This document shows positions 1 to 17,045 of a DNA stretch of 17,045 nucleotides, piece by piece. Positions within the stretch are counted from its first letter, which is position 1, and each line of letters starts with the position of its first letter. The notes under the pieces are model-generated. The model was given only the letters and a program-made list of their open reading frames with translations. It was not told where the DNA came from and searched no databases. The DNA comes from Deltaproteobacteria bacterium (GTDB lineage Bacteria > Myxococcota_A > UBA796). The stretch lies in the NCBI GenBank assembly GCA_002683315.1, contig NYTD01000294.1, forward strand, positions 1-17,045. The letters run 5' to 3'. Position numbers and translations under genes: made by a program.

Positions 1-3000
1 GCGTTTTCCTCGCAGGTCGTATGTTCGTGTACGCCCTCTCCAAACCCCTTCAATACGACGTTGACCATCACATAGAGAAATAAATTTTTGCAAGAATTCT
101 GGATTGGTGTGTTGGATATCATCAAGATAGAGCATGACATTATTGGCCATTTCAAAGCCAAGATTGATCTTTTCTACTTCTTGACGTGCTGTCGCATTGG
201 GTGATTCACTGGGGTCTAATGAAACGACTTGATGGCCAATACTTGGACCATTTACTTTTACAAAAGCCATCCCCAAGCGTGAAGCAACGTATTCCATCAG
301 TGTTGTTTTACCATACCCTGGAGGAGAAATAAGCAAAAGCATACCCATAAGGTCGGTTCTCTTTCCTGCTCCGGATGCTCCGATCTGTTTGGCAAGATTA
401 TCCCCAATAAGCGGTAGATATACATCGTTAATCAGCTTGTTTCGAACAAATGAAGTTAAAACACGAGGACGTAATTCGTCCAAGCGTAGTCTTTTTTCTT
501 GTTCGATCAGGTACTGATGTCTTCGTTCTCGATAATTTGTAAATCCAGGGACATCGACCAAGTGAAATTGTGTCAGTCTTTCTAAGAAAGAGTCATAGCG
601 AAGGTGAAGAACTCCGTCTACGATGTTTTTATGCTGTCCTTGGAGATCTTTGATGCTTGTCTCTGTATTGACTTTATGAATCTGCCACATCTTTGGGTCT
701 GAACACCAATATACAATTAACTCTTCTAAGATATGCATGGAATCTGGATTGATAGAAGAGATTCCGGCATGAATCCAAGCACGAACCAGTTGTTCCTGTT
801 CGAATACATTATTGCTAAGATCTGCGATATTTCGTTTTAGACCTCTTAAAGCACTTCCTTTTTTGATCTTCGATCGAATCTGTTTGTCTACATTCGCGGC
901 AAGTGCCGATAAAATAAACTTAGGAACTGTGTTCGAAATCTCTACAGCGAGATAAGATCCGGCTCGCTGTAATTCAATCTGAGATAGATCTTGAAGTATA
1001 TTTTGTTGTTTCAGATATGTGGAAATAGCAATGGTGATTTCTTTTGAAAATTGAGAGTCGGTACCCGTTCCCATTGTCTTTTTCATCATAGCGAAGCTTT
1101 TTGCTCTATTTTTCCATCGGTCTTGTTCTATTTTTTCTGTTATGGATTTCCACCACCATACACCAGCAGCTCTTGAACGGGCAGAATAACGAAGGTTGCC
1201 AACATCTTTTCTCAATCGAAGCAGAGCGATTAGAATTTTGGTTGCATCTTCGTCATGAATACCTTTTACATATCCTGCACTTGGGAATAAAGATGCGTAT
1301 TCTTGCACATGTGTAGCAAGATTCTCAGCTTGTTCAAGTACACTGATGGAAAGATTATGCGTTTCGTCTTCTGCGGCAAACAGTACCGCTGCGGCCAGAT
1401 ATTCACTGCGAGAGACATGATTATTTTCAGAGATAAGAGCTTGATTCCAATACTTTTGGGTTTTCAAGAATTCTTCATCTTCTATTTGCTCATGAAAATC
1501 GGTGTTGCTGATGTGTAGTGCGACCCCATCTTTGTAGGGCGCGATGGTTAGGTCAAAGGGTTGTGTATTGATGGCAAATCGATGAGATCCCAATTTAATG
1601 AGATTGCTTCCCTCTTCAAATAATTCAGCAGTATCTCTGAGTTTGCGAAGGGCATCTTGTTCTGTCGACTGTAAAGAAGATAGTAATTCTTCTGCTTTGT
1701 TGGTGTCCAATAACGCAGAGATTTGTTGTGCCAACTTTCGAACACGTTGGATTCGACGATCTGTAGCAAAAAAGTTTTTCAGGGCTCCGATATCGGAGAA
1801 TCGTCGTTCAGACAAACCGGAAATGATTTGTTGTGCATTGGAAAAGAGTCGTGCAACACGTGATTGTCGCTGTTCAAGAAGTTGTTGTTTTTTAGAGAAA
1901 AGTGTGCTTTGAAGAAGTTCTCTTTTTTCCTCTATTTGATCGACAAAGTCGTCCACATCTCCAAATCGAGCATCGAGATCGTCCAATAGGCCAGCCAGAC
2001 GAGATGATTCTTCATCACATGCTTCAGGATTATCTGCTCTTGCTACACCACCTTCTAATTCAGAGTCGAATAATGATATATCGGCAGAGAATTGCGCATA
2101 TGCTTCTTTTTCTCTCAGTTTTTTCTGTTGGTTATCAAGTGAGAATTTTACTTGGTTACTTCTTCTTCGTACTTTTTGAATTGACTGTGTGATGGCTGTT
2201 TGGATTTCGATATCGTCGACTTGTAGACGTTCTTTTGCATCAGTAAGAACATTGAGTCCATCCATCACATTGTCTAGTTTCTCTGTAATGGGTTTAAGAC
2301 CTTTGGTTTTTTTGATATTTCCGAGCTCTTTTTCCATGTCATTGAGGTCACGAAGTAGGGGAGCAAAGGCATCTGGTCTTTGTAAGAATTTGGCACAAAG
2401 AGTACAGAGTTTGGTCATGTGTTCATCAAGAATAGCAATTTGCAGATCGAGTGCTTCTTCATCTATATATTTGATGGTCTCTAGTGATCTGGTTTGAGCC
2501 GTTTGTCTGTCCAGAATACCCATCCCTTCCATAAATTGACCGATACTTCGATAGTTTTCAGGCCTGATCTCTTCCAGCATAGAAGTGATTTCTTTTTTCG
2601 CTTCTTGAAGGGCGAGCTTGGCTTTTTTCTTCTGGGTTGCGACTTTTTCGAATTCATCAATGATCTGACCAGATGTGAGTCGCAATGCCTCAATTTCAGA
2701 CTCAAAGGAACCACTCTCATCATGAGAAAGCCAAGAGAAATCTTGAACGATGCGATCACAAGAACGAACCAAGTTTTTATATAGTGTGGATGTGGGATTG
2801 GGATTTTGTACGAGCTTGTGAAGAGTGTGCACATCGGATATGGCACGAACCAATTCTGCATTTCCGATATCGCGAAGAAATGAAGGAGCTTGATTCTTCA
2901 TATGCTCAATATAGTATTCGTCCGAGCAAAAAGGGGTGTTCCATATCTGTACCTCATGGGTTGTGGTCGGTTCGTCCTTTGCCCAGAAGAACAGAAGTGT

Positions 3001-4155
3001 ACCGTCATCCATAATCGAGTACCCGTGACATTCAATGGGATTACGAACTTCTTTGTTAACCATATTGTATTGCAACAAGAGATAGTGACCATCTCTTCTA
3101 CGAAGGTACACAAATAGGACATCCTCTCCATTGGGAGAGACGATCTTGGTTTTGAATTCAAGTTCTTCTGTGTCGAACGAAAATACGCGAAAAGAGCCTT
3201 CGGAAAGAACATATCCCTTTGGGAATATGAGTCCCTGGTTTTCGGGAAGGCGAATACAGGAAAGACCAATAGAGTCCTCTCGAACGACTTCATTGGTTAA
3301 GGTGTTGAATACAAAATAACGAGTTTCCTCAGCTCTAGGGGTAATTTGAAGAACGATGAGTTGTCCAACAAAAGCATATGCTATGTGTGCATCATCAAGA
3401 GTTTGGTAGGGGTCTTCTACGGGTTCTGAATAGATTCCTTCTCCATCTTCTGTGTTGTTCTCCACTTTAATGGTCAGGTCTCCCCCTACGGTTTCTACAA
3501 AGACTTTATTTTGGATGCTAACATGAGGATGGTTGCCTCGAATAAAGTCTTCTGGTGTTGTTTTAATCCAATCAAAGTCATGAGACAGAGGAAAGAGGTT
3601 GTCATCTCCACCAAATTCATCTTTGTATGTCAGGCCTCCTTTTCCGTCTGATAACCAACGAAATACTTTGGTGTCACGATGTGAGGCTCCAGTCTGAAAA
3701 ATAGCCAAAAATTTGGAAGAAAGAAGTCGAAATTGGATGAGTTTGGATTCTTTGTTGAATGAAAGAAGATTTTTATAGTCACGCAGAAATTGTTCATTTC
3801 GAAGAAATCTCCACGAATCTTCGTCTTGTAGTACTGAAAAAGAATCTTCTGAAAATTGGTAGAGAGCAAATGTGTCTTCAGTATCGATTTTTCGTAAGCC
3901 AAAATATACATTATATCCCAGTAGGACGGTTCCATTTAGGTAGACCATATCTACGGGAACACAATTATTATCCGTGATGATTTTATGTTTTTTACGTAAT
4001 GTAAAAACAGAGTCACCAAAGAGGGATGTTCTCTTTTCATTTAGTGTACGTGATTTTTGAAATATCTCTTGAGATGTACGTTCCAAACGAGCCTTGAGAA
4101 CTTTGTAATTATCCCCCAAGGCTTCACTGGATGTTCCTTCGTCTTTTTCTTCCAT
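1..4155 (-). CDS. Giant protein of at least 1385 aa; its 3' end lies beyond window position 1. The start ATG is at 4155-4153, 6 nt after the flotillin stop, with a GAGAAAGG Shine-Dalgarno-like sequence inside the flotillin 3' end. Domain order is an N-terminal globular region of about 480 aa, then about 750 aa of predicted coiled coil rich in E/K/Q/L, then a dynein/MoxR-type (AAA_5-like) AAA+ ATPase domain.
   Basis: I translated the minus strand from 4155 down to position 1 by hand and found an unbroken 1385-codon frame. It is absent from the ORF track only because it has no in-window stop. The Walker A motif LLLISPPGYGKTTLMEY is encoded at about 304-345. The Walker B motif VMLYLDDIQH is at about 109-135. 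It is followed by NPEFLQKFISLCDGQRRIEGV, which matches the hhhhDE-N...LLxLLD..R pattern of AAA_5/MoxR/midasin-type ATPases. The stop-to-start spacing of 6 nt indicates translational coupling with the upstream flotillin gene. Confidence 0.8.
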   Translation of the reverse strand, partial: MEEKDEGTSSEALGDNYKVLKARLERTSQEIFQKSRTLNEKRTSLFGDSVFTLRKKHKIITDNNCVPVDMVYLNGTVLLGYNVYFGLRKIDTEDTFALYQFSEDSFSVLQDEDSWRFLRNEQFLRDYKNLLSFNKESKLIQFRLLSSKFLAIFQTGASHRDTKVFRWLSDGKGGLTYKDEFGGDDNLFPLSHDFDWIKTTPEDFIRGNHPHVSIQNKVFVETVGGDLTIKVENNTEDGEGIYSEPVEDPYQTLDDAHIAYAFVGQLIVLQITPRAEETRYFVFNTLTNEVVREDSIGLSCIRLPENQGLIFPKGYVLSEGSFRVFSFDTEELEFKTKIVSPNGEDVLFVYLRRRDGHYLLLQYNMVNKEVRNPIECHGYSIMDDGTLLFFWAKDEPTTTHEVQIWNTPFCSDEYYIEHMKNQAPSFLRDIGNAELVRAISDVHTLHKLVQNPNPTSTLYKNLVRSCDRIVQDFSWLSHDESGSFESEIEALRLTSGQIIDEFEKVATQKKKAKLALQEAKKEITSMLEEIRPENYRSIGQFMEGMGILDRQTAQTRSLETIKYIDEEALDLQIAILDEHMTKLCTLCAKFLQRPDAFAPLLRDLNDMEKELGNIKKTKGLKPITEKLDNVMDGLNVLTDAKERLQVDDIEIQTAITQSIQKVRRRSNQVKFSLDNQQKKLREKEAYAQFSADISLFDSELEGGVARADNPEACDEESSRLAGLLDDLDARFGDVDDFVDQIEEKRELLQSTLFSKKQQLLEQRQSRVARLFSNAQQIISGLSERRFSDIGALKNFFATDRRIQRVRKLAQQISALLDTNKAEELLSSLQSTEQDALRKLRDTAELFEEGSNLIKLGSHRFAINTQPFDLTIAPYKDGVALHISNTDFHEQIEDEEFLKTQKYWNQALISENNHVSRSEYLAAAVLFAAEDETHNLSISVLEQAENLATHVQEYASLFPSAGYVKGIHDEDATKILIALLRLRKDVGNLRYSARSRAAGVWWWKSITEKIEQDRWKNRAKSFAMMKKTMGTGTDSQFSKEITIAISTYLKQQNILQDLSQIELQRAGSYLAVEISNTVPKFILSALAANVDKQIRSKIKKGSALRGLKRNIADLSNNVFEQEQLVRAWIHAGISSINPDSMHILEELIVYWCSDPKMWQIHKVNTETSIKDLQGQHKNIVDGVLHLRYDSFLERLTQFHLVDVPGFTNYRERRHQYLIEQEKRLRLDELRPRVLTSFVRNKLINDVYLPLIGDNLAKQIGASGAGKRTDLMGMLLLISPPGYGKTTLMEYVASRLGMAFVKVNGPSIGHQVVSLDPSESPNATARQEVEKINLGFEMANNVMLYLDDIQHTNPEFLQKFISLCDGQRRIEGVWRGRTRTYDLRGKR

Positions 4156-4161
4156 TCTTGT

Positions 4162-6342
4162 CTATTTACCTTTCTCAAGATCTGTTGCTTTTGCCAGCAG
4201 TTTTTGGAGGAGCTTCTTTTGCTCTCCAGAGGCTTCACTGGATAAACTTGCCAATAATGCGGTCAGAGAAAGATCGCGAAGGTTGCTGGCTTGCAATGTT
4301 GGAGAAGATAAAATGTTCCCTACTTCTTTGATGAGGTTTCCTTCTCCCTCTACGTAGTCGTGAGAGATTGCTTGCAGTGTCTGAGAATTATCCATGGTGG
4401 CATCTAGGGCTTGTCCGATTGATGCTGCGTGTACAAATCGATCGAAGAAGTCTCCGTCTCCACCGATAATTTTGATGTCTGTAGCTTTGAATGCTTCTGC
4501 CAATACACCAGCTTGTGATTTGGCAATGTCTCTGCGAACCGCGATTTTCGCCAGTGCAATTTCTGTTTGCTTGTCCAATTTTAGACGGAATTCTTCTCGT
4601 TCTTGAGAGATACTGTCCATAAGTTTTTGGGCATCGGCCAGTTTGGAAATACCTTCAGCCTCTGCGAATTTGATCTGACGAATCCGATTGGCTTCAATTT
4701 CGTTTGCTCTTTCGGCAATATTTACATTTCTCTCTTCCACATCTGCTTCGGCAAGTCCTTGCGAACGAAGTAATTCGGCCTGCGCGGATCCTTCATCTTG
4801 GATGTTGGCTGCCTTTGCGACGCCTTCTGCTCGGATGTTTTCTGCTTTGGCCGCACCTTGACGTTTGAGGTTCTCTGCATCAACATTGCCTTTTCTATCG
4901 ACAATGTTGAGCTCGAGATCATCGTTGGAAATTTTGATCTTGCGCAGATCTTCGCGATCGCGTTCTACTTGAACTTTTGCCATCTCTGTTGCCGCGAATT
5001 CTTTGGCTTGTGCATCTGCCAAACGTTCTTTTTCAAACGCTTGTGCCTCTGCGCGCATCTTTTGTGACTCTGTCTCAATTTCGGTTTTCTTGAGATCAAA
5101 AGACGCCATTTGCGATTCTATTTCAGCAACTTTTTTCGCGGCTTCTGCTTTTTCTTCTTCTTTAATTCGTAGCTCTTCTGCTTCGGCTTGTGCTGTGATA
5201 ATGGTAGATACCTTTGTTCTTTCTGCTTGTTCTCGCTCAATAATTGTTTTATTGGTCTCTTCTGCTTCGATTTTAATACCTTCTGCTCTTTTTAGTTTGG
5301 AAGATTCTTCTTCGGCTTTCGTTTGTTTTTGAAGATCCAATACAATGGCAAGTTCTTCACGTTTCTTTTGTAAACGAAGTTTTTCAGCCATATTTTCTTC
5401 TTCTTTGATTAGAAGGGCTTTTTCTCGGTCTTTCAGCGCAGCTTCTGCTTTTCTCATTTTGGCTTGTTCTGCAGCGAGCATTTCGGCTTCGTCATTCTTG
5501 CGCTGTAGCTCGATATCTTTTTCTTTTGTCAGCTCTTTGGTGGAGACTTCACGTTCACGTTTGATTCGCGCTTCTTCTTTTGCTTGGGTTGTGTTTTCAT
5601 CAATCTCGGATTTTTGACGCTCAGCAAGCTTAATTCTCTCCCACTTCTTGACATCTTCGTTGGCGATTTGTGCCTCTGCTTCGTTTGAGAGGCGAGCCTC
5701 TATGACCTGCTTCTCTTTTGTAATTCGAACGATCTTTTCGATACCCTGTGCATCGTTGGTATCATTTACATTGAGGAACTTGAGGTCTGTTTGCTCCAAG
5801 TAGTCAATCGCCACATCTTCAAGCACGAATCCGTTTAGATCTTCTCCGATCACTTCTTTTACTTTTTCTCGGAAGTCATCGCGTTTGTCGAACAAAGCTG
5901 CAAACTCAAATTGCTTTCCAGCTGTTTTGAGCGCTTCGGAGAACTTGGCATTGAATAGCTCATCGAGTGCTGCCAGGTCAGATGCTCGTTTACATCCGAT
6001 TGTGGAAGCAACTTCCAGAACTTTTTCCTTGATGGGATTGATGCGAACAAAGAAGTTTACATTGATGTCGGCTCGCAGATAATCTTTACAGATCAATCCA
6101 TTCTTTCCTCTACGATCAATGTCGATTCGCTTCACGGAGATATCAATGATCTCGGCTCGATGAATGATGGGGTATACAACACCTCCTGTGAAGGTTACTT
6201 CAGGTTCATCTTTCATTTTGTTAATGATGAGTGCCTGTCCTTGATCTACTTTTCGGTAAAACTTTGCAACAATGATGGCAAGTCCACCAAAAATAACGAT
6301 AATCCCGCCAATGAGGATTGCAGCAACGATCCATGTGTCCAT
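4162..6342 (-). CDS. Flotillin-like SPFH/band-7 protein of the YqiK type, 726 aa. It has an N-terminal TM helix, an SPFH domain, an unusually long E/K/A/R-rich coiled coil of about 370 aa, and a flotillin C-terminal region.
   Basis: The N-terminus MDTWIVAAILIGGIIVIFGGLAIIVAKFYRKV is a TM anchor. The segment RRGKNGLICKDYLRADINVNFFVRINP is recalled as matching the corresponding E. coli YqiK segment closely. About 370 residues of heptad-like EAxxK/R repeats follow. A GGAG lies 10 nt upstream of the ATG at 6342. Confidence 0.9.
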   Translation of the reverse strand: MDTWIVAAILIGGIIVIFGGLAIIVAKFYRKVDQGQALIINKMKDEPEVTFTGGVVYPIIHRAEIIDISVKRIDIDRRGKNGLICKDYLRADINVNFFVRINPIKEKVLEVASTIGCKRASDLAALDELFNAKFSEALKTAGKQFEFAALFDKRDDFREKVKEVIGEDLNGFVLEDVAIDYLEQTDLKFLNVNDTNDAQGIEKIVRITKEKQVIEARLSNEAEAQIANEDVKKWERIKLAERQKSEIDENTTQAKEEARIKREREVSTKELTKEKDIELQRKNDEAEMLAAEQAKMRKAEAALKDREKALLIKEEENMAEKLRLQKKREELAIVLDLQKQTKAEEESSKLKRAEGIKIEAEETNKTIIEREQAERTKVSTIITAQAEAEELRIKEEEKAEAAKKVAEIESQMASFDLKKTEIETESQKMRAEAQAFEKERLADAQAKEFAATEMAKVQVERDREDLRKIKISNDDLELNIVDRKGNVDAENLKRQGAAKAENIRAEGVAKAANIQDEGSAQAELLRSQGLAEADVEERNVNIAERANEIEANRIRQIKFAEAEGISKLADAQKLMDSISQEREEFRLKLDKQTEIALAKIAVRRDIAKSQAGVLAEAFKATDIKIIGGDGDFFDRFVHAASIGQALDATMDNSQTLQAISHDYVEGEGNLIKEVGNILSSPTLQASNLRDLSLTALLASLSSEASGEQKKLLQKLLAKATDLEKGK
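4540..5670 (-). repeat. Low-complexity coiled-coil-coding segment of the flotillin gene (E/A/K/R-rich heptads), with GAA/GCA/AAA/CGA-rich DNA.
   Basis: Flotillin residues about 225-600 are dominated by E, K, A, R, Q and L in heptad-like periodicity, for example EAEELRIKEEEKAEAAKKVAEIESQ. Antisense frames here give spurious Ser-rich ORFs at 5003..5332 and 5345..5617. Confidence 0.6.
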
Positions 6343-6528: not shown

Positions 6529-7398
6529 TCAAGTCTTTTGATTTTGTTGACGTTTTTTCCATTCAGAAAGACGATGTTGCACTTTTTGGGCAACGATACT
6601 TTGAATGGGTTCCACAATTAAAGCATTGCGTTCTTTATCAATAGAGATGACAAGGACTTCATCTCCATTGGTTAGGGCATTGTCGTGATCGCAGCGCGCC
6701 ATCATGATTAGTGGGGTTCCATTTCTACTTTTGATTTTTATCTCACCAAATCGATCGTTGACTTTGCTTGTTGATACAACCCCAATGCTACCGATAAGAT
6801 CGATGTCTCTTTCTCCTTGATTGGTTTCAAAGGCTCCATCAAAAGGACGAACCAATACAGAGGTGGCCAGAGTTCCACAAAAAAGAGCAAGTAAAAATGT
6901 TAGTGTGGCATTGATGAATGCTCCAAAAGGAAGGCTCGTCATCACCATGGCCACCATAAAGTATGAAATAGTCCAGCTTAATAATACGATTAGACTTGCA
7001 GAAACTGTAATAGGAACAGAGCGAAGTTTGAGGGCAGAGAGAAGACCAACGCTATCGGATATTCCTTCTACTTCCACTTCTGAGCCTATATCTCCAAGTG
7101 ATTCGGTAGCCCCTTCTGCTACGGCTTCTGCGCCGGCCTCTGCAGCCGCTTCTGCCACAGCTTCTGATGCTGCTTCTGCCGTGGCTTCTGCAGCCGCTTC
7201 TGCCGCGATTTCAGCAACTGTTTCTGAAGCCCCTTCGATTCCTCCATCGATAGCGCCTTCCAATCCATCTGCACCATCGAATAAATCTAGATCGGCAACA
7301 CCAATAAAGACAAAGCCCCAATAAAGAGAGAGAAAACCTAATAATATAGAGAAAATCCCAGTGGGCATGATCAAAATATTCTCTAAGAATGCTTCCAT
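6529..7398 (-). CDS. NfeD-like (YqiJ-type) membrane protein, 289 aa. It has N-terminal TM helices, an Ala/Glu-rich low-complexity linker, further TM helices, and a C-terminal NfeD OB-fold beta-barrel.
   Basis: Its position immediately upstream of an SPFH/flotillin gene on the same strand is the canonical nfeD-SPFH operon arrangement. The hydrophobic segments are MPTGIFSILLGFLSLYWGFVFIGV and LIVLLSWTISYFMVAMVMT...LTFLLALFCGTLATSVLV. The C-terminal region GERDIDLIGSIGVVSTSKVNDRFGEIKIKSRNGTPLIMMARCDHDNALTNGDEVLVISIDKERNALIVEPI resembles the NfeD short-form beta-barrel. The ATG at 7398 has GGGG about 9 nt upstream. Confidence 0.75.
   Translation of the reverse strand: MEAFLENILIMPTGIFSILLGFLSLYWGFVFIGVADLDLFDGADGLEGAIDGGIEGASETVAEIAAEAAAEATAEAASEAVAEAAAEAGAEAVAEGATESLGDIGSEVEVEGISDSVGLLSALKLRSVPITVSASLIVLLSWTISYFMVAMVMTSLPFGAFINATLTFLLALFCGTLATSVLVRPFDGAFETNQGERDIDLIGSIGVVSTSKVNDRFGEIKIKSRNGTPLIMMARCDHDNALTNGDEVLVISIDKERNALIVEPIQSIVAQKVQHRLSEWKKRQQNQKT
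7100..7240 (-). repeat. Imperfect tandem repeat with 9-nt periodicity (GCTTCTGCN / GCNGCTTCT) encoding an (A-E-A/T/S-A)n linker in the NfeD-like protein.
   Basis: The DNA at 7126-7230 reads gcttctgcgccggcctctgcagccgcttctgccacagcttctgatgctgcttctgccgtggcttctgcagccgcttctgccgcg. The protein segment is AEIAAEAAAEATAEAASEAVAEAAAEAGAEAVAEG. Confidence 0.6.
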
Positions 7399-8983: not shown

Positions 8984-10813
8984 CTAATCTGCACATATAA
9001 ACTGATCAAAGATCAATTGGTTGTTGTTTTCACGGCATTCTTCGATCATGTCTTGCTCATCGAGAAAGATAAATATTCCACGTTCCACTTCTTCTTGTGT
9101 AAATGAGTAGGGACCACTCCAGTATACTTCTTGTTCCTCGAGAATGGGTATGACATCGGTCTCAAATGTTCCATCGGGGCTTTGAATATATACGGTGATC
9201 TCTTCTTCAATACTTCGAAGCCCGGTGTTTTCTATGGGGATATAGATGTCGATTATATGTTGTCCACAGTTGTATAGACAAGCAGAGGGAGATCCGATTT
9301 GGATGTCCGGTAAAGACAACCCAACTCTGGTTTCCGAATTTCCTGCTCGAAAATTGTTCCAGTGTAGCCAGCTTGGATAGGGATAGGCGGGAATACTTCC
9401 ATCGTCTTCAATATTGGTGATGGAATATGCGTATTGGTTCCAAATGGTACGTGCGGCTACCCAAGAATTATCATTGCTTCCGATAACACGAAGACCATAA
9501 TCTGAATCTCTACCACCTGGTAAAAGGATTTCAGCTGAGCCATCTTTGTCAATGTCAACGATGGTCGGATATTCAAACCGGGTTCCAGAATCGTGTTCAT
9601 TCCACTCCAGTTCTACTTGACCTGTTGCACCATCCAAAATCCACAATGTTTCCTCATCGGCATATACTACCTCGGCAGCACCATCTCCTTCAAAATCAAA
9701 AACAGAAGAACCAGTCATTCCAGAAGAGGCTTCTTGAATGGGATGTGACCAAAGAAGCGTGCCATCTCCATCCAGAACGATATAGTCTTCCTTTGAAGCG
9801 ACACCAACTTCTGCAGCGCCATCGCCATCGAAATCGGCAATGGTAGGAGGGCCACTTCGCGAGCCATATTCATAGCTCCAGATCAACATTCCTTCATCAC
9901 TGAGAACAGTAATAATTCCATCGGATGTGGATACGATTTCTGGTGACGTGTCTCCATCAAGATCGCCAAGTGCTGGAAATCCAACGATACCTTCAGCTTC
10001 CCATATCAAGGTTCCATCATGAGTAAAGATCGCACCACTACTAATGACTTCTTGTGTACCATCAAGGTTGATATCAGCAGCAAAGGAGCCAAAATATTTG
10101 TTTGCATTTTCGTGATAGTCGGGTCTTTGCCATCGTATGGAACCATCAGCATTGAGAACGGTTCCCCCTAAAATAATTTCAGAAGAACCATCTCCGTTAA
10201 GATCGGCCAAAGATATGATCGAATCTCCTCCACTTCGCGTGTCAAAATCGGCATGCCATACCATATTACCTTGTATGTCAAGGCGCATGACCCCATGTTT
10301 GGTTGCGGCAAAGATATCGGGAAAACCATCTTCATCAACATCTCCGGCAGCGACTCCAGATATGCCCCAAAATGGATGGTTCTCGTCAGATGCGATAAAC
10401 AATGGCTCTTGGGTTTGACCTGATATTGCAATTAGGTGTCCCTCTCCTCGAAACTTATTTCTACGAAACGCAGGGAAAATAATGTCAGGGATATCGGATT
10501 CATCGATTCGACCGTCTCCGTTGTCATCATTTAGGTTGATGGCTATGGGAGGAGATTCTACAACATTGTATTCTTCATCGATGTCATTGTCTTTCCATGT
10601 CCACTCAAGCACGGGAGAAAAAGTTCCTATTTCTGGCTCCGCAGTACAATCCATGTATCGATTGGGCATATAATTATCTTGTCCAGACTCTTGGCACTCT
10701 TCTTTGCCTGTGTCTGGGATGGTACCCGGTTGGACATCTTCATGGACATTTTTTAGCTCGTACTCATTACAGCCCCAAAATAATAATGACAAGCTGAATA
10801 ATTGGATCTTCAT
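8984..10813 (-). CDS. FG-GAP repeat (integrin-alpha-like beta-propeller) lipoprotein of about 609 aa from the revised start. It has an N-terminal lipoprotein signal peptide and a C-terminal beta-rich domain of about 120 aa of unknown type.
   Basis: Repeats of the form FDGDGAAEV, FDFEGDGAAEVVYAD, DIDKDGSAEILLPG, DLNGDGSSEIILGG and DLDGDTSPEIV are diagnostic of FG-GAP/VCBS-type propeller blades. The ORF-track start at 10840 is a TTG nine codons upstream. The ATG at 10813 gives MKIQLFSLSLLFWGC (lipobox L-F-W-G-C) and is preceded by AGGAG 9 nt upstream, so I place the start there. Confidence 0.8.
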   Translation of the reverse strand: MKIQLFSLSLLFWGCNEYELKNVHEDVQPGTIPDTGKEECQESGQDNYMPNRYMDCTAEPEIGTFSPVLEWTWKDNDIDEEYNVVESPPIAINLNDDNGDGRIDESDIPDIIFPAFRRNKFRGEGHLIAISGQTQEPLFIASDENHPFWGISGVAAGDVDEDGFPDIFAATKHGVMRLDIQGNMVWHADFDTRSGGDSIISLADLNGDGSSEIILGGTVLNADGSIRWQRPDYHENANKYFGSFAADINLDGTQEVISSGAIFTHDGTLIWEAEGIVGFPALGDLDGDTSPEIVSTSDGIITVLSDEGMLIWSYEYGSRSGPPTIADFDGDGAAEVGVASKEDYIVLDGDGTLLWSHPIQEASSGMTGSSVFDFEGDGAAEVVYADEETLWILDGATGQVELEWNEHDSGTRFEYPTIVDIDKDGSAEILLPGGRDSDYGLRVIGSNDNSWVAARTIWNQYAYSITNIEDDGSIPAYPYPSWLHWNNFRAGNSETRVGLSLPDIQIGSPSACLYNCGQHIIDIYIPIENTGLRSIEEEITVYIQSPDGTFETDVIPILEEQEVYWSGPYSFTQEEVERGIFIFLDEQDMIEECRENNNQLIFDQFICAD

Positions 10814-10840
10814 GATGATGCTCCTCGATTGAATATTCAA

Positions 10841-11028: not shown

Positions 11029-12831
11029 ATGAAATTCGCCTTTAGATCCAAGATGATTCTTCTCTGGTTCACCTGTCTTTCGTGTACAGGAGAGGAACAC
11101 TTTTCTTTTTCTGTCAAAGCGGATGTTGTGTCTGAAGAGACACAAGAAGAATCTGAAGAGCCCGTCACATATTCATCGTTACCCAATACCTGCGCACCGA
11201 GTCAAGTAGACTCCGATCCGCTCATAGAAAAGGGGTTCGTCTTTACACAAGACTATGTTTTTGCTGAATTGTTGGATATCGTGTACGAGCCAGAAGAAGA
11301 GGTCATTTGGTCAGTAGGGCAGGGGGGACTCATGGTGTTTGATGTCTCCAATCCAGCGCAACCAGAATTTATGACATCGTATAGTCCTTTGGCATGGCAT
11401 GAACGAGCATACCATCTTGCTTTGGATGGTTCTGAACGGATATTTCTTACCCATCGTAAAAATGGATGGATGTCGTACGATATACGCAATCCACTACAAG
11501 CGAGTGCTGGAGAGTTTATGCCACTCTCGGGAGCGTCTGGCATCGCGTATGAGGAAGATATCGTATATGTGGCAACCCATACTGGTTCGGTCTATTCATA
11601 CGATGTTTCTCTCGCTTTTCCAGAGATGCTTGATGTTGTTTCTGATCTTGGAAATCCATGGCGAATGGTACTAGGCGAAAACTATGTATACGTAGCAGAC
11701 AATACACAAGGTCTTGTTGTCATCAACAGACAATCTCCACAGCAGCTCACGGTTAAGAATCGAGTGTTGGGTAGTGGAGGGTTGCAAGATGTGGTTTTGA
11801 ACGAAGAGATCGCATACGGAGCAGCAGGAGGTCTAGGGATTGATGTTTTTGATGTTTCCAATCCCGAAAGTCCGCAATGGATCGGCAATATCCCAACATC
11901 GTATCCCGCGATTGAGCTGGCCGTGGATAATGATGTTCTGTGGGTAGCCTCCCAGCAAGATGTCATCGCCATTGATATATCAAATCCGTATGATCCTGTT
12001 ATTGTAAATACCGAGAAGACCCGACAATGGGCCATGGCCATCGATGCTGCCGATGGATATGCTTTTGTTGCTGATTGGGGGTATCTGTCCATTCTGGAAT
12101 TGCAGGCTGATGTTTCAGGTAGCGATCTTCATCTTGCATCAAATCAGGTCTATATCGATGAGAATGAATCGATGTTGATTGCACTTCGCAACTTTGGAAC
12201 AAAGCCCATTGAAATCTTTGGAGGAACATCTTCACATCCAGATGTAGGGCTTGAAATCTCTTCTTTGGAGATTGAACCGCACGAAACCCAGTGGCTTTCT
12301 ATTCAGAAAAACACATCACAGGGAAGTCAAATCTGTATTGCTTCGTCAGATCCAGATGCTTCGCAAGAGTATATCAATGTGGTTGGTCCACAAGAACATC
12401 CAATTGGTTCCACAGCTCCGGATTTCAGCTTGACGAGTCTGGATGGGACATTATATCGTCTACAAGAGATGTATGGCTCCTATGTTGTTTTGGTATATTT
12501 TGCCACGTGGTGACCGGTATGTGCATCCGAGGTCTCGGATATTGAACACAGTATTTGGCGGCGATATAAAGATGAAGGAGTCATCGTACTTGGGATCGCG
12601 TCCCAAGAGCCACAGATGGAAATTGAACAGTATGTGGAACATCTTGGGATCACGTTTCCGGTATTGATGGATTCCAATGGCGAGGTGCATTCTCAATATC
12701 AGCAGCAGTCAGCATTTCCATCGGCAGCATATCCACAAGATTGGGTGATTGGTCCAGATTCCACCATTGTCTATCGAAATAACGGATATGAGCTTGATGC
12801 GATTTTGTCTGCAATTGGTAAAGCACAGTAG
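11029..12831 (+). CDS. Selenocysteine-containing lipoprotein of 600 aa with Sec at codon 495 (TGA at 12511-12513). It has an N-terminal lipoprotein signal (MKFAFRSKMILLWFTCLSC), an LVIVD-repeat beta-propeller region, and a C-terminal TlpA/redoxin-type thioredoxin fold with a U-P-V-C active site.
   Basis: The ORF track ends the gene at ...VVLVYFATW* and lists a separate 71-aa ORF at 12616..12831. The frame is continuous through the TGA, with no other stop until TAG at 12829-12831. The read-through sequence PVCASEVSDIEHSIWRRYKDEGVIVLGIASQEP...LGITFPVLMDSNGEVHSQYQ...DWVIGPDSTIVYRNNG matches the redoxin consensus F.ATWC.PC..E.P.L...Y...GV.VLG...D...FPVL.D..G.V...Y.V...P.TF.ID..G.I. The TGA sits exactly where the first Cys of WCxPC belongs, and a SECIS-like hairpin follows 11 nt downstream. 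LVIVD-type repeats include GGLMVFDVSNPAQPE, QGLVVINRQSPQ, GLGIDVFDVSNPESP and DVIAIDISNPYDP. Confidence 0.75.
12525..12540 (+). other. Bacterial SECIS-like stem-loop: a 6-bp stem AUCCGA/UCGGAU with a 4-nt loop GGUC, beginning 11 nt 3' of the in-frame UGA.
   Basis: The sequence after TGA is ccggtatgtgc (11 nt), then ATCCGA GGTC TCGGAT, a perfect hairpin. The apical sequence GAGGUCUC closely resembles the CAGGUCUG apex of the E. coli fdhF SECIS, which carries the conserved G and U loop bases. The 11-nt spacing between UGA and the hairpin base matches the canonical bacterial SECIS geometry. Confidence 0.65.
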
Positions 12832-12833
12832 CA

Positions 12834-15107
12834 TTAGCGAATATAAAAGTCACCACTTGATTGGTGCGCGCTGGGCCATGGGCGATGTTGAAAGACACAC
12901 GATGTTCCAAAAACAGTATTGTTGGTTTTGTAGCCATACTTTCCAATACCCATCCACGTACCGGATACTCCGCCATCCCACGTGTGAAAGTTGAAACCAA
13001 TTCGCGCACGGATATTGGAGCATCCATTGTGTCCTTGTGTTGCATTTATGGTTAGGCTTGCAACCAATGGTTCGCTGTCGATTTGGGTAGGGGTACAATC
13101 TGTAGAGTTTTGTATGACATCGAAGAGGCTTGATCCTGTCCAGCAATGAGAGACATCTCCAATCGCATTATGATAGGTGCTCATGACTTCTGTGAAATCC
13201 GATATTTCCATATAAGCGGGCGAGATATGGTGGTCATCGTGAACGGTGGCGTATCCTCCAGACTGCGTCCAAGAAGAGTCGTCATAATATGGTGCCGATT
13301 TGAGAACGAGCATCCATCCTCCACCGTAGCTGGTCATATCGCAATATGCTTCAAAAGCATTACCATCCATTTGTGGATCGATCCAGTATATGTCACTTGG
13401 TGCACTGGTATTGCTTTCGATAATACTCAAACAGCTTTCCATGGGGACACTTACTTGCGAACCACACAGGAAAAACGAAGCATCTGCATCATCGCAGTCA
13501 GCCCCTCCTATTTGATCGAAGCTGTCATACCCGTCTTGGTCTTGGTCGTAGTCACTTTCTCCATCACAATCACTGTCGATACCATCATACCAAACTTCGG
13601 CAATTCCGGGGTTGACAGTGGAATCTTCATCGTTACAATCAGGGTTTGTCGGATCATTATTACGCCAACCGTCTTGGTCTTGGTCGTAGTCGCTTTCTCC
13701 ATCACAATCACTGTCGATACCATCATACCAAACTTCGGCAATTCCGGGGTTGACGCTATTGTCTTGGTCATTGCAGTCCTCGGCAATCGAGACATATCCT
13801 ATGGGTTGGTTGCACCCCATTTGTGACTCTGTTTCATCTCCGTATCCATCTTCGTCATTATCGAGATACCATGTGGACATATCGATGGCATCTTCTTCGT
13901 CGGTTTGTCCGTCGCAGTCATTATCCAAACCATCACAGATTTCATCTTGTGATACATATACACTTGCGTTGGTATCATCACAGTCATCGGTGTTGGCTAC
14001 GTATGAGGCTGGCTGCATACAGCTCGTCATTGTGAAAAGTGCACTACCGTACCCATCGCCATCATAGTCGATATACCAAGTGGGTGCATCAGAAGCATCA
14101 TTTTCATCGATGGTGCCGTCGCAGTCATTGTCTGCACCATCACATGTTTCATCTGCTCCCCAATAGGTATTGGAATTTGTATCGTCGCAGTCATTGTCAT
14201 TTTGAGAATGTCCTGTGGGTAGAGAACATGCAGCGGTGGGAGAAAGAGGATCTCCAAATCCATCTTCATCTGTATCTGCAAAGAATATTTGGGTACCATA
14301 TGCGCCATCTTCATCGATGTATCCATCGCAATCGTTGTCGATTTCATCGCAGATCTCAATAGAAAATGGATTGGCGTAGGTTTCCAAGTCATCGCAGTCT
14401 CCTGCTTGTGCTACAAAACCTTCGGGTGCAGAGCACGATTCCATTGTATTATCTTCTGTTCCAAATCCATCACTGTCTTTGTCTTCGTAGAAAACGATAC
14501 GTAACCCTTCGTCGATGGTACCAGTACAGTTATTGTCAATGTCATCACAAATCTCTGTGGCCAAAGGATGAATATCGGCATCGGTGTCGTTGCAGTCATC
14601 TGAAAATAGTGAAATCCCCAATCTTAGGGCACATTCTTGAACAGGCTGATTGAGATCACCAAAGCCATCTCCATCCTCGTCGAGATAGAATTCTTGCATT
14701 AGGCCTTCATCGATATCTTCGTTGCAATTGTTGTCGAGGCCATCACAGATCTCTTCTGCACCCGGAAATACTGTATTGTCAGTATCGTTACAGTCCGAGC
14801 CATTGTCAACAAAGCCATCTTGTTCGGAACAACTTTCTACTGTCAGTCCTTCATTGCCAAATCCATCTTCATCTGCATCGGCATAGTAGGTCGTTTTTAC
14901 ATCTTCATCGATGGTTCCATTACAGTTATTGTCCATCCCATCACAAATCTCTGTGGCAGAAGGGGAGATAGAGGCATTGGAGTCATCACAGTCTTCCTCA
15001 GCAAGAAATCCGTCACCATCTTCATCGATGGTGATTTTACCCGTATCTGGGTTGGTTTTTGTCGATTCACCACTGCAGGCGAGTAGATAGAAGAAAGAAA
15101 AGAGCAT
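12834..15107 (-). CDS. Large acidic secreted lipoprotein of 757 aa. It has a lipoprotein signal (MLFSFFYLLACSG), about 8-9 Cys-rich 'putative metal-binding / Myxococcales-type' repeats (D.DGDG...C.....DCDD.....P.A.E.CDG.DN.CDG.IDE), and a C-terminal fibrinogen-related domain (FReD).
   Basis: The repeat is seen as EDCDDSNASISPSATEICDGMDNNCNGTIDED, GSDCNDTDNTVFPGAEEICDGLDNNCNEDIDEG and so on, eight or more times. The C-terminal domain contains YCDMTSYGGGWMLVLKS, matching the hallmark (Y)CDM...GGGWTVIQ motif of fibrinogen C-terminal domains. The ATG is at 15107. The stop TAA at 12834-12836 is only 2 nt from the convergent stop of the selenoprotein gene. Confidence 0.8.
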   Translation of the reverse strand: MLFSFFYLLACSGESTKTNPDTGKITIDEDGDGFLAEEDCDDSNASISPSATEICDGMDNNCNGTIDEDVKTTYYADADEDGFGNEGLTVESCSEQDGFVDNGSDCNDTDNTVFPGAEEICDGLDNNCNEDIDEGLMQEFYLDEDGDGFGDLNQPVQECALRLGISLFSDDCNDTDADIHPLATEICDDIDNNCTGTIDEGLRIVFYEDKDSDGFGTEDNTMESCSAPEGFVAQAGDCDDLETYANPFSIEICDEIDNDCDGYIDEDGAYGTQIFFADTDEDGFGDPLSPTAACSLPTGHSQNDNDCDDTNSNTYWGADETCDGADNDCDGTIDENDASDAPTWYIDYDGDGYGSALFTMTSCMQPASYVANTDDCDDTNASVYVSQDEICDGLDNDCDGQTDEEDAIDMSTWYLDNDEDGYGDETESQMGCNQPIGYVSIAEDCNDQDNSVNPGIAEVWYDGIDSDCDGESDYDQDQDGWRNNDPTNPDCNDEDSTVNPGIAEVWYDGIDSDCDGESDYDQDQDGYDSFDQIGGADCDDADASFFLCGSQVSVPMESCLSIIESNTSAPSDIYWIDPQMDGNAFEAYCDMTSYGGGWMLVLKSAPYYDDSSWTQSGGYATVHDDHHISPAYMEISDFTEVMSTYHNAIGDVSHCWTGSSLFDVIQNSTDCTPTQIDSEPLVASLTINATQGHNGCSNIRARIGFNFHTWDGGVSGTWMGIGKYGYKTNNTVFGTSCVFQHRPWPSAHQSSGDFYIR
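13531..13754. repeat. Recent in-frame tandem duplication with a period of 138 bp (46 codons). Two 86-bp cores at 13531-13616 and 13669-13754 are identical at 85 of 86 positions.
   Basis: The sequence ccgtcttggtcttggtcgtagtc[a/g]ctttctccatcacaatcactgtcgataccatcataccaaacttcggcaattccggggttgac occurs twice. It duplicates the protein segment NPGIAEVWYDGIDSDCDGESDYDQDQDG in the 757-aa lipoprotein. Confidence 0.85.
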
Positions 15108-15667: not shown

Positions 15668-17045
15668 CTATTCACTTCCATACATTAGATATGCTTTTCC
15701 ATATCCGTGTGAGGTTGACGTAAGCCAAAAATCATCGAATCCATCCCCATCAACATCCCCAACTGGATTGATTCCTCTTCCCAACTGGTCGTTGCTCGTG
15801 GCACCATATAGTACAAACGATGCCTCATCAATGAGGTTCATGGAACCTGTTTCAGCACCACCATATACACCATATACCGCCCCAGAATTGTTGCCGTTGT
15901 CATCATTTTTGTGTGCGACAATGGCGATATCGCTTAGACCATCACCATTCACATCACCGATTCGGTGAACATATTCACCAGTATTGTCATCATCGGATGC
16001 ACCATAAAAAATATGGGAGGAGAGGGATAGGTCGGATTGCGTTTCTCCACCATATACAAGAAACGCGCGGCCTTCGTCTTGATCATTGATATCGTAATCG
16101 GGTGCACCGATGAGAAGATCGGTTTGTCCATCTCCATTGAAATCCCCTGCATCTGCGATGGAATATCCAATGTGTTCTTTGAATTGTGTCCCATGAAATT
16201 TTTGAAGCATATTCACATCAAGGGCCTCATCAAACAGCATGGATTTGGGGAGAATAAATACACTTCCTGTATCGGTGGTGATGTCATCACTGTAAATGGA
16301 TGAGATGGCATATTCAATAATTCCATCCCCATCAAAGTCATTGATGGCGGCAATCTGCCATCCGAGGTATTGTCCGTTGTTGGCTCCATATATACTATGT
16401 GTGAGCGTTGGTGTTTCTCCACCGCTAAAGATATGAACGGCTCCGCGATTGGTCCCCGCACCATCATCTCCACGAGCAGTAACCAGAGCATCATCAAATC
16501 CATCTTCATTTGCGTCACCAATGGCAAGGATGTCATTGGCAAATTGATAATTGTCAATACTTGTGTGTAATGATTCAAGAGGTATCTCTTCCTCTACTCT
16601 ATCGATAGAGAAAAAATACACGGATCCTGCTTTTGTACCTTGTTCAAATCCACCACCAGTCATGATATCTTCTATGCCATCTCCATTCATATCGCCCACA
16701 AAAGCCAAACTTCTACCCACTCGCTCTTGTTCGGTGTGTCCAGACCAAAAGGCACCTTGATCTGGTATGTCGGGAAAGTCTTGGAAATCTAAATCTGCTG
16801 GGACATAGAAGAGGCCTCCTTTGAATTCATCATAGCTGTGCATCGCAAAGATCATGGCTGGTTTTGTGGGGTCAGAGCCGATGGGAGCAACGTCTGTTTT
16901 TATTCCAAATCCCCCTCCAAAAGGAGAATTCCATCCTTGTGTAAATCGATGTGCATTCATGGTTGCGGTGGTACCGTTACAGTCTGCGTCAATATCGTCG
17001 TTTTTCTCGATGGCGCGTGGATGAATACGAGAATCGTTATCATTA
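15668..17045 (-). CDS. FG-GAP repeat beta-propeller protein. The frame is open to the window edge, so the gene is probably 5'-truncated by the window. The first in-window ATG is at 16960.
   Basis: Repeats include VGDMNGDGIEDIMTGG, IGDANEDGFDDALVTA, INDFDGDGIIEYAISS, AGDFNGDGQTDLLIGAPDYD, IGDVNGDGLSDIAIVA and VGDVDGDGFDDFWLTS, each followed by G-x-hY-hh-G, which is the canonical FG-GAP pattern. Translating upstream of the ATG at 16960 gives ...NDNDSRIHPRAIEKNDDIDADCNGTTAT with no stop before position 17045. Confidence 0.8.
   Translation of the reverse strand, partial: NDNDSRIHPRAIEKNDDIDADCNGTTATMNAHRFTQGWNSPFGGGFGIKTDVAPIGSDPTKPAMIFAMHSYDEFKGGLFYVPADLDFQDFPDIPDQGAFWSGHTEQERVGRSLAFVGDMNGDGIEDIMTGGGFEQGTKAGSVYFFSIDRVEEEIPLESLHTSIDNYQFANDILAIGDANEDGFDDALVTARGDDGAGTNRGAVHIFSGGETPTLTHSIYGANNGQYLGWQIAAINDFDGDGIIEYAISSIYSDDITTDTGSVFILPKSMLFDEALDVNMLQKFHGTQFKEHIGYSIADAGDFNGDGQTDLLIGAPDYDINDQDEGRAFLVYGGETQSDLSLSSHIFYGASDDDNTGEYVHRIGDVNGDGLSDIAIVAHKNDDNGNNSGAVYGVYGGAETGSMNLIDEASFVLYGATSNDQLGRGINPVGDVDGDGFDDFWLTSTSHGYGKAYLMYGSE

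Follow-up and report, generated by a model that had tools for sequence, protein, structure and literature searches.

Does the in-frame TGA at positions 12511-12513 of contig NYTD01000294.1 terminate a gene, or is it a codon for selenocysteine (Sec)? The contig comes from a Deltaproteobacteria bacterium (assembly GCA_002683315.1), and its complete 17,045-bp length is what we call the window. A plus-strand open reading frame (ORF) begins with ATG at 11029, runs for 494 codons to the end ...VVLVYFATW and meets this TGA. The same frame then continues as PVCASEVSDIEH...SAIGKAQ for 105 sense codons up to the TAG at 12829-12831. On this contig, the NCBI record MAA80284.1 is a 486-residue hypothetical protein. 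We conclude that the locus is a genuine, conserved and mis-annotated selenoprotein gene and that 11029-12831 is, very probably, a single gene encoding a selenoprotein of 600 residues and not a 494-residue protein plus a fragment. The features on which this conclusion depends are as follows.

11029-12831, plus strand: selenoprotein gene of 494 codons, the Sec-UGA, 105 codons and TAG, giving 600 residues (frame reading, Pfam matches and colinearity with the Cys-containing homologue P0155)
12511-12513, plus strand: Sec-UGA, residue 495, the first position of W-U-P-V-C (U, selenocysteine), with C as the next base (TGA in 87/87 family loci, TGC in loci L102 and L104)
12520-12522, plus strand: resolving Cys498 of the UxxC motif (invariant in 32/32 aligned loci)
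12525-12540, plus strand: selenocysteine insertion sequence (SECIS) hairpin with the 6-bp stem AUCCGA/UCGGAU and the loop GGUC (12531-12534), encoding A-S-E-V-S-D (covariation and synonymous constraint)

The read-through product was analysed with C substituted for U at the stop codon. The Pfam search of this sequence gave matches to AhpC-TSA (residues 459-582, E 6e-23; 81.5 bits, cut-off 26), Redoxin (65.5 bits, cut-off 26.6) and LVIVD (61.4 bits, cut-off 20.2). In sequence alignments with proteins from the PDB, the TGA falls on the first Cys of WCxxC in the solved ResA/TlpA-like proteins. These alignments confirm the proposal of the first-pass annotation, made from the letters of the window, that the codon occupies the first Cys of the active site and gives W-U-P-V-C. 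The same annotation described an ORF of 494 amino acids followed by 106 further codons; the coordinates and the first number were correct, whereas 106 includes the stop codon and the sense codons number 105.

The truncation is not confined to this contig. Some 45 proteins in the databases, with identities as low as 26-30%, share the ending ...VVLVYFATW, which means that the gene calls of these relatives stop at the same codon. DNA was fetched for 31 loci from species-representative genomes, mostly metagenome-assembled genomes (MAGs) labelled Myxococcota or Deltaproteobacteria, and for 53 metagenome loci; the pooled set including the window comprised 87 loci with 78 distinct 60-nt sequences. 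TGA stands straight after FATW in 87/87 loci, at protein identities from 27% to 81%, and every locus has an in-frame continuation of 104-115 codons with the pattern P-[VQI]-C-x-S-E-V-S-D-I-E...AYPQDW.... The part following the TGA shows 50% amino-acid identity and divergences of 0.34/0.32/0.53 at the three codon positions; the third positions diverge most, as expected for translated sequence. Homologues with a genuine stop and an independent redoxin gene, which the first-pass annotation had named as the finding that would speak against a selenoprotein, were not encountered, since all 87 loci keep the TGA in frame with a conserved continuation. The true terminator is TGA in 40/79 family genes, approximately 105 codons past the Sec codon. 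Several MAGs contain two or three paralogues. The public record MAA80284.1 is thus mis-annotated as a truncated hypothetical protein whose catalytic domain is lost, and the same applies to its relatives, about a hundred in number, in Myxococcota-like MAGs of marine and freshwater origin. As a separate observation, the genes in which TGA serves as both Sec codon and terminator (40/79 among family loci L001-L101) provide a built-in contrast between SECIS-directed decoding and termination.

The hairpin AUCCGA-GGUC-UCGGAU begins 11 nt after the TGA, and the perfect 6-bp stem with a GGUC loop reported earlier at 12525-12540 was found exactly there. The family form NUCCGA-GGUC-UCGGAN lies 11 nt past the TGA in every one of the 87 loci, and the consensus structure calculated by RNAalifold from the family alignment is exactly the 6-bp stem. 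Stem cells are paired in 99% of cases, a share that falls to 18-53% if the 3' partners are displaced by 1-3 columns. Two pairs covary, and none of 500 shuffles reached the observed covariation score. The 78 distinct sequences have the loop GGUC without exception; the outer pair 15-30 is G-C in 69, C-G in 5, A-U in 2 and G-U in 2, and for the pair 18-27 the counts are 75 C-G and 3 U-A. Mismatches occur in only 3/78 and consist of A-G at the loop-closing pair.

The same constraint is visible in codon usage. The codons under the stem and loop are nearly invariant (Ser TCC 31/32, Glu GAG 32/32, Val GTC 32/32, Ser TCG 29/30), and synonymous codon entropy is 0-0.2 bit under the hairpin against 0.8-1.6 bit in the flanking fourfold-degenerate Val, Ala, Thr, Pro and Gly codons. 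Since the Cys-containing forms of the protein show free variation at S, V and S of the SEVSD motif, the strict conservation of these positions in the UGA forms is imposed by the RNA and not by the protein. Selection on the RNA itself has preserved the hairpin in all family members that contain the UGA.

The consensus of bacterial SECIS elements comprises a loop of 3-9 nt, a stem of 4-16 bp, a G in the first two loop positions, a distance of 16-37 nt from the UGA and a minimum free energy of -7.5 kcal/mol or lower (PMC13188914). The window hairpin has a loop of 4 nt starting with GG, a stem of 6 bp and a UGA-loop spacing of 17 nt, so that the spacing agrees with the bacterial rule as the first-pass annotation had stated. 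The family consensus hairpin has a free energy of -7.6 to -9.1 kcal/mol and the 60-nt window fold including the hairpin -13.8 kcal/mol. The resemblance to the apex of the Escherichia coli fdhF SECIS, also noticed from the window, was borne out as well: in both elements an A-U pair closes the GGUC tetraloop (AGGUCU), which occupies nt 21-24 from the U of the UGA in the window element and nt 22-25 in fdhF and is thus one nt nearer to the UGA. The fdhF sequence used for the comparison was verified in 5419/5426 E. coli genomes. The window element differs from it in its stem sequence and in having no conserved lower helix. No Rfam model matches the window.

A profile of the post-TGA fragments was used in an exhaustive HMMER search of 1.84 billion representative proteins. 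Full-length homologues with Cys in place of Sec were found, 556-685 residues long, with the propeller, an immunoglobulin (Ig)-like domain and the redoxin domain in one ORF and the motif W-C-P-x-C (P0155, P0156, P0184, P0186, P0190, P0192, P0193, P0196, P0231, P0251 and P0252 are examples). The view that the family has no Cys form, based on word-indexed searches that gave only N- or C-terminal fragments, was overturned by this search. The first-pass annotation did not mention such full-length proteins; it had suggested looking for orthologues with ATW-C-P-x-C and for fusion of the LVIVD and redoxin parts, and both are present in full-length single ORFs. P0155 is colinear with the window read-through over residues 78-593, through position 495, with 34% identity (E 1e-102). 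In the DNA of the Cys forms P0155 and P0156 (loci L102 and L104), TGC stands at the Sec position and no hairpin is present. The existence of Sec/Cys pairs in uninterrupted single ORFs excludes the idea of two separate genes, and such pairing, as read from the aligned sequences, is the classic selenoprotein signature. The proposal that ORF callers had split a selenoprotein is therefore supported by the conserved TGA, the hairpin and the single-ORF Cys homologues.

A rough neighbour-joining tree placed the Cys forms at the base and showed one large Sec clade, with P0155 and P0156 (Cys) as well as P0179 and P0226 (motif lost) nested inside it. This topology suggests that the fusion arose first with Cys, that one Cys-to-Sec change founded the large clade, and that reversions to Cys and two motif losses followed. 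The tree fits the known pattern in which Sec arises from a redox-active Cys and may later revert. In the full-length proteins P0179 and P0226, W-U/C-P-x-C is replaced by S-P-N-D-P-R-A-P and S-L-D-D-P-L-L-P. These are redox-dead versions in which propeller, Ig-like domain and redoxin scaffold are all retained, and this suggests a redox-independent function of the scaffold. The family as a whole offers a clean natural experiment for SECIS biology, with one short hairpin frozen at the nucleotide level across proteins of ~30% identity, and with compensatory pair changes and decay of the hairpin on reversion to a Cys codon.

The function of the protein has to be considered in the light of its domain organization, which comprises the following elements in addition to the active site.

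11029-11085, plus strand: signal peptide ending in a lipobox (MKFAFRSKMILLWFTCLS-C), with the putatively lipidated Cys19 at 11083-11085 (sequence only)
11191-11193, plus strand: conserved Cys55 in an N-terminal LPxxCxxP segment (30/31 homologues)
11221-12102, plus strand: seven-bladed beta-propeller of LVIVD repeats, residues ~65-358 (Pfam LVIVD and AlphaFold2 model)
12127-12384, plus strand: Ig-like seven-strand beta-sandwich, residues ~367-452, with conserved Cys436 at 12334-12336 (AlphaFold2 secondary structure)
12403-12828, plus strand: TlpA/ResA-type thioredoxin-fold (redoxin) domain, residues 459-600 (Pfam, PDB matches and model of a Cys form)

The order of lipoprotein signal, LVIVD propeller and Sec-redoxin proposed in the first-pass annotation agrees with the Pfam LVIVD and redoxin matches and with the conserved lipobox Cys; the Ig-like sandwich between the propeller and the redoxin domain was absent from it. 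The lipobox Cys is kept in 30/31 aligned homologues, usually in the context L-[SAG]-[GAS]-C. The window lipobox C-L-S-C has Cys at -3 instead of the Leu, compared with the canonical form [LVI][ASTVI][GAS]C found in most homologues (LLSC, FLGC or LLAC, for example). The window protein is accordingly best described as a predicted lipoprotein. The AlphaFold2 model of the first 486 residues (mean predicted local distance difference test score, pLDDT, 89.4; predicted template modelling score, pTM, 0.86) has a low pLDDT at the N-terminus. Its 28 strands form a seven-bladed propeller, which is followed by the seven-strand Ig-like sandwich and by the first hairpin of the redoxin domain. Precomputed Pfam matches of homologues to PF22544 and PF15780 support the Ig-like domain. 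The model of the full-length Cys homologue P0155 is a compact three-domain body (pLDDT 87.9, pTM 0.85) in which the C-terminal domain has a canonical TlpA-type fold, with WCPHC at 533-537 lying at the N-terminus of helix 1 (537-555). Cys55 and Cys436 co-occur in 29/31 homologues and are often the sole cysteines besides the lipobox Cys. They likely form a disulfide, which would tie the N-terminal segment to the Ig-like domain and fits an extracytoplasmic location.

The following course of events can be proposed. SelB carrying Sec-tRNA(Sec) would bind the hairpin as the ribosome arrives at the UGA and insert selenocysteine, and the weak termination context UGA-C would help the insertion. The product would be exported and anchored in the cell envelope by the lipidated Cys19, with the LVIVD propeller, the Ig-like sandwich and the C-terminal TlpA/ResA-type redoxin domain packed into one compact body. 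The propeller would bind a partner, either a protein or another envelope or extracellular ligand, and the Sec495 selenolate would attack a disulfide, or a sulfenate or peroxide, on this partner. Cys498 would resolve the resulting selenenylsulfide, and a membrane electron shuttle of the CcdA/DsbD type would then reduce the Sec495-Cys498 selenenylsulfide again. The protein is thus plausibly an envelope thiol-disulfide oxidoreductase tethered to a binding propeller.

The protein might instead be a selenoprotein of another kind, namely a surface peroxidase or oxidant scavenger similar to peroxiredoxin (Prx) or glutathione peroxidase (GPx), or one in which the redoxin domain feeds a catalytic site of the propeller in cis; we regard these two possibilities taken together as rather unlikely. 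The best Pfam match is indeed AhpC-TSA, JGI names the Cys homologues "peroxiredoxin", and "Prx-like" selenoproteins with a UxxC motif are plentiful in oxic marine samples (PMC2398784). A true peroxiredoxin mechanism is less probable, however, because the signature PxxxTxxC is absent: where Prx and BCP proteins have P-x-x-x-T-x-x-C(U), the sequence here is V-L-V-Y-F-A-T-W-U, with Thr at -2 and not at -3 and no Pro at -7. The Prx models of NCBIfam gave 19-35 bits against cut-offs of 140-270, and the sequence neighbours with solved structures are reductases of the ResA/TlpA/Etrx type. As to catalysis in cis, the part modelled as the propeller holds the invariant polar residues R143, D224 and T331, but the propeller has no specific enzyme match.

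A further extension of the in-cis idea appears still more doubtful. The family might represent a new class of envelope selenoenzymes in which the propeller, instead of being a passive anchor, is catalytic or captures the substrate with high specificity and the Sec-redoxin feeds it electrons in cis, in a manner that may be likened to the Trx-MsrA/B fusions or to the Ig-like and Trx-like domains of DsbD. The UGA lies at 82% of the gene length and could therefore act as a selenium-dependent isoform switch. If this were true, the selenium supply would determine whether a truncated lipoprotein with only the propeller or the full enzyme is made.

Several points weigh against the interpretation of the locus as a gene for a Sec-dependent envelope oxidoreductase. 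The identity of the inserted residue as Sec is deduced by sequence comparison, and the function, substrate, electron donor and Cys55-Cys436 disulfide are all matters that we infer. Neither tRNA-Sec nor SelA, SelB or SelD motifs were found in the window, i.e. the whole 17-kb contig, or in 731 kb of flanks. No conserved neighbour gene was revealed across the family by the neighbourhood analysis, which thus gave no pointer to the substrate. Fold searches showed that the propeller resembles only generic WD40-like folds, including the surface or periplasmic proteins Lp49 and YncE. The neighbour-joining tree on which the Sec/Cys history rests carries no support values.

The remaining objections concern the hairpin. 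Taken alone, the window hairpin, an AT-richer copy, has a free energy of -6.0 to -6.8 kcal/mol, which is slightly weaker than the consensus threshold of -7.5 and thus borderline, and its z-score calculated from the window alone was -1.8 in 23 nt and 0.14 in 66 nt. A rival hairpin within 12535-12558 overlaps the 3' arm of the SECIS stem and is of about equal stability (-6.9 kcal/mol). The stem is perfect over 6 bp and does not have the bulged U of the fdhF element. This bulged U is required by E. coli SelB. In the window sequence alone, thermodynamics cannot separate the hairpin from chance; the case for it therefore rests on the comparison with related sequences, and on that comparative evidence the feature is far beyond chance. 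The rival hairpin was not predicted in two GC-richer relatives that were folded (L003 and L009); in the organism of the window, it might reduce the efficiency of recoding. The fdhF-like GGUC apex suggests that the window SECIS may be one that E. coli can decode; expression and testing would then be practical.

Decoding of the UGA without selenium, either because these organisms use UGA in general as a sense codon (genetic code 4 or 25) or because a near-cognate tRNA reads through it, is very improbable. Read-through alone would suffice to explain the conservation of the downstream frame. General reassignment is, however, contradicted by the family genes that use TGA as their terminator (40/79), and within the window, in-frame TGA is missing from the five other long ORFs, and TGA terminates the ORF at 6529-7398. 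Moreover, the UGA stands exactly at the redox-active Cys position, and the hairpin with the fdhF-like apex always accompanies it and is gone when the codon is TGC, which speaks against selenium-independent read-through.

We consider it less probable again that the TGA is a true stop and that the locus yields two products, a propeller protein together with a small redoxin that has a start codon of its own. Gene callers do split the locus in this way, as the 486 residues of MAA80284.1 show, and they call downstream ORFs of 80-108 residues from an internal Met or Val. The called start codons nevertheless vary between loci, and the downstream piece would be devoid of the first strands of the fold and of the nucleophilic residue, the first 36 residues of the redoxin domain being already present in the N-terminal part. 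In all cases the two parts share a frame and no spacer separates them, and the Cys homologues are single ORFs. The idea that the TGA stems from an error of sequencing or assembly, or from a recent nonsense mutation in a Cys codon (a pseudogene), can be practically dismissed: a single-base change from TGC to TGA would be enough and Cys forms exist, but the TGA is found in 87 independently assembled loci, 78 of them distinct, at 27%-81% identity and with the downstream frame conserved in all.

Some observations on other genes were made in the course of the analysis. The selenoprotein gene is adjoined by a minus-strand gene at 12834-15107, which encodes 8 MopE-type putative Cu-binding repeats and a fibrinogen-like GGGWT domain; a gene rich in MopE-type motifs was also found near the Cys-form locus L102 (7196-7921, minus strand). 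FG-GAP repeat proteins are encoded on either side of the selenoprotein gene (8984-10840 and 15668-16960). Both the MopE-type and FG-GAP repeat families recur at several of the loci analysed. A scan for promoters and terminators around the selenoprotein gene gave nothing informative. At the other end of the window, the first 4 kb look free of ORFs but are occupied by a minus-strand ORF (2-4161) of at least 1386 residues which runs off the contig end and has matches to DUF3686 ("ATPase involved in DNA repair", E 8e-161) and DUF7902 as well as an AAA domain at its C-terminus. Immediately upstream of this ORF, a minus-strand gene (4162-6342) encodes a 726-residue coiled-coil protein with faint similarity to flotillin (FloT), and the two may form a gene pair.

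Two further in-frame TGA codons were noticed in genes outside the propeller family. At ~6114 of L037 (Nitrospiria CAKKSE010000102), a single-domain TlpA-like sequence reads FFASW-TGA-PYC and has a 118-codon in-frame continuation; judging from its sequence, this gene probably encodes another UxxC redoxin selenoprotein outside the propeller family. On the minus strand of the unrelated locus L033 (Ca. Poribacteria OZ250160, reverse-complement offset 9478), the heavy-metal-associated (HMA)-type motif EGMT-TGA-SAC lies in a frame open on both sides and is accompanied by the hairpin AGUGC-GGUCC-GCACU, whose loop starts 25 nt from the U of the UGA; this makes it a candidate for a Sec-containing HMA domain. 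Apart from this candidate, the scan of the flanks for a UGA plus a hairpin gave only GC-rich, out-of-frame noise.

The redoxin domain of the window protein belongs to the TlpA/ResA-like family (PF08534, PF00578, cd02966), with profile scores above the thresholds and the active site in the corresponding position. ResA, TlpA and CcmG as well as the pneumococcal Etrx1/2 are extracytoplasmic, membrane-tethered thiol-disulfide reductases, and the window protein shares with them the TlpA-type fold, a predicted envelope anchor, the W-C-x-x-C motif and a conserved Glu, which follows the second Cys by three residues and has a known role in ResA. The best sequence matches in the PDB were 2ls5 (5e-16), ResA 4nmu (9e-14; also 1st9) and Etrx 4hqs/4hqz/2yp6, and W-U-P-V-C aligns with WCGVC of 2ls5 and WCKPC of ResA. 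The window protein has Sec in place of Cys and the dipeptide P-x, as in CcmG and DsbA, instead of x-P. Unlike all these reductases including Etrx, it adds propeller and Ig-like modules. The best NCBIfam score was that of ResA (NF002854), with 77.4 bits against a cut-off of 170, and the protein is therefore not a ResA orthologue; no NCBIfam model reaches its cut-off for the fusion protein. The ResA-like WAxxUGC selenoprotein, long form (NF041054), similarly has a ResA-like Sec domain inside a longer protein, but its motif is UGC and not UPxC, and the score was 25.8 bits against a cut-off of 300.

Selenoproteins with a redoxin fold and a UxxC motif are established families (PMC13188914, PMC1088965, PMC2398784). 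The window protein has the same fold families, a UxxC motif with a nucleophilic Sec, a SECIS in the coding region and Cys homologues in common with them, whereas its redoxin domain is the C-terminal quarter of a predicted lipoprotein of 600 residues. None of these three papers describes a fusion of the UxxC redoxin families with a propeller. Among the selenoprotein fusions in data of the Global Ocean Sampling (GOS), those with a PP2C phosphatase, a Secretin_N-like domain and unknown domains were reported, and none combined Prx-like 1 or an LVIVD propeller (PMC2398784). With the same defining motif and fold, the window protein probably works like the UxxC redoxin selenoproteins and does not represent a new principle.

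As for the propeller, the PF08309 profile scores above its threshold and the modelled fold is that of a propeller. LVIVD-repeat proteins are known only as putative cell-surface propellers (PMC2447325), and neither a redox domain nor selenocysteine has been described in them. The combination of domains, which the first-pass annotation did not match to a described selenoprotein family, was found neither in NCBIfam nor in the searchable literature, where no paper combining LVIVD with selenocysteine came up. The family offers a way to approach what LVIVD propellers do and adds a multi-domain member, predicted to be lipid-anchored, to the exported selenoproteins. In comparison with the known systems, the chemistry and the recoding mechanism are thus familiar, while the lipoprotein-propeller-Ig-redoxin architecture is undescribed and the SECIS is exceptionally well conserved.

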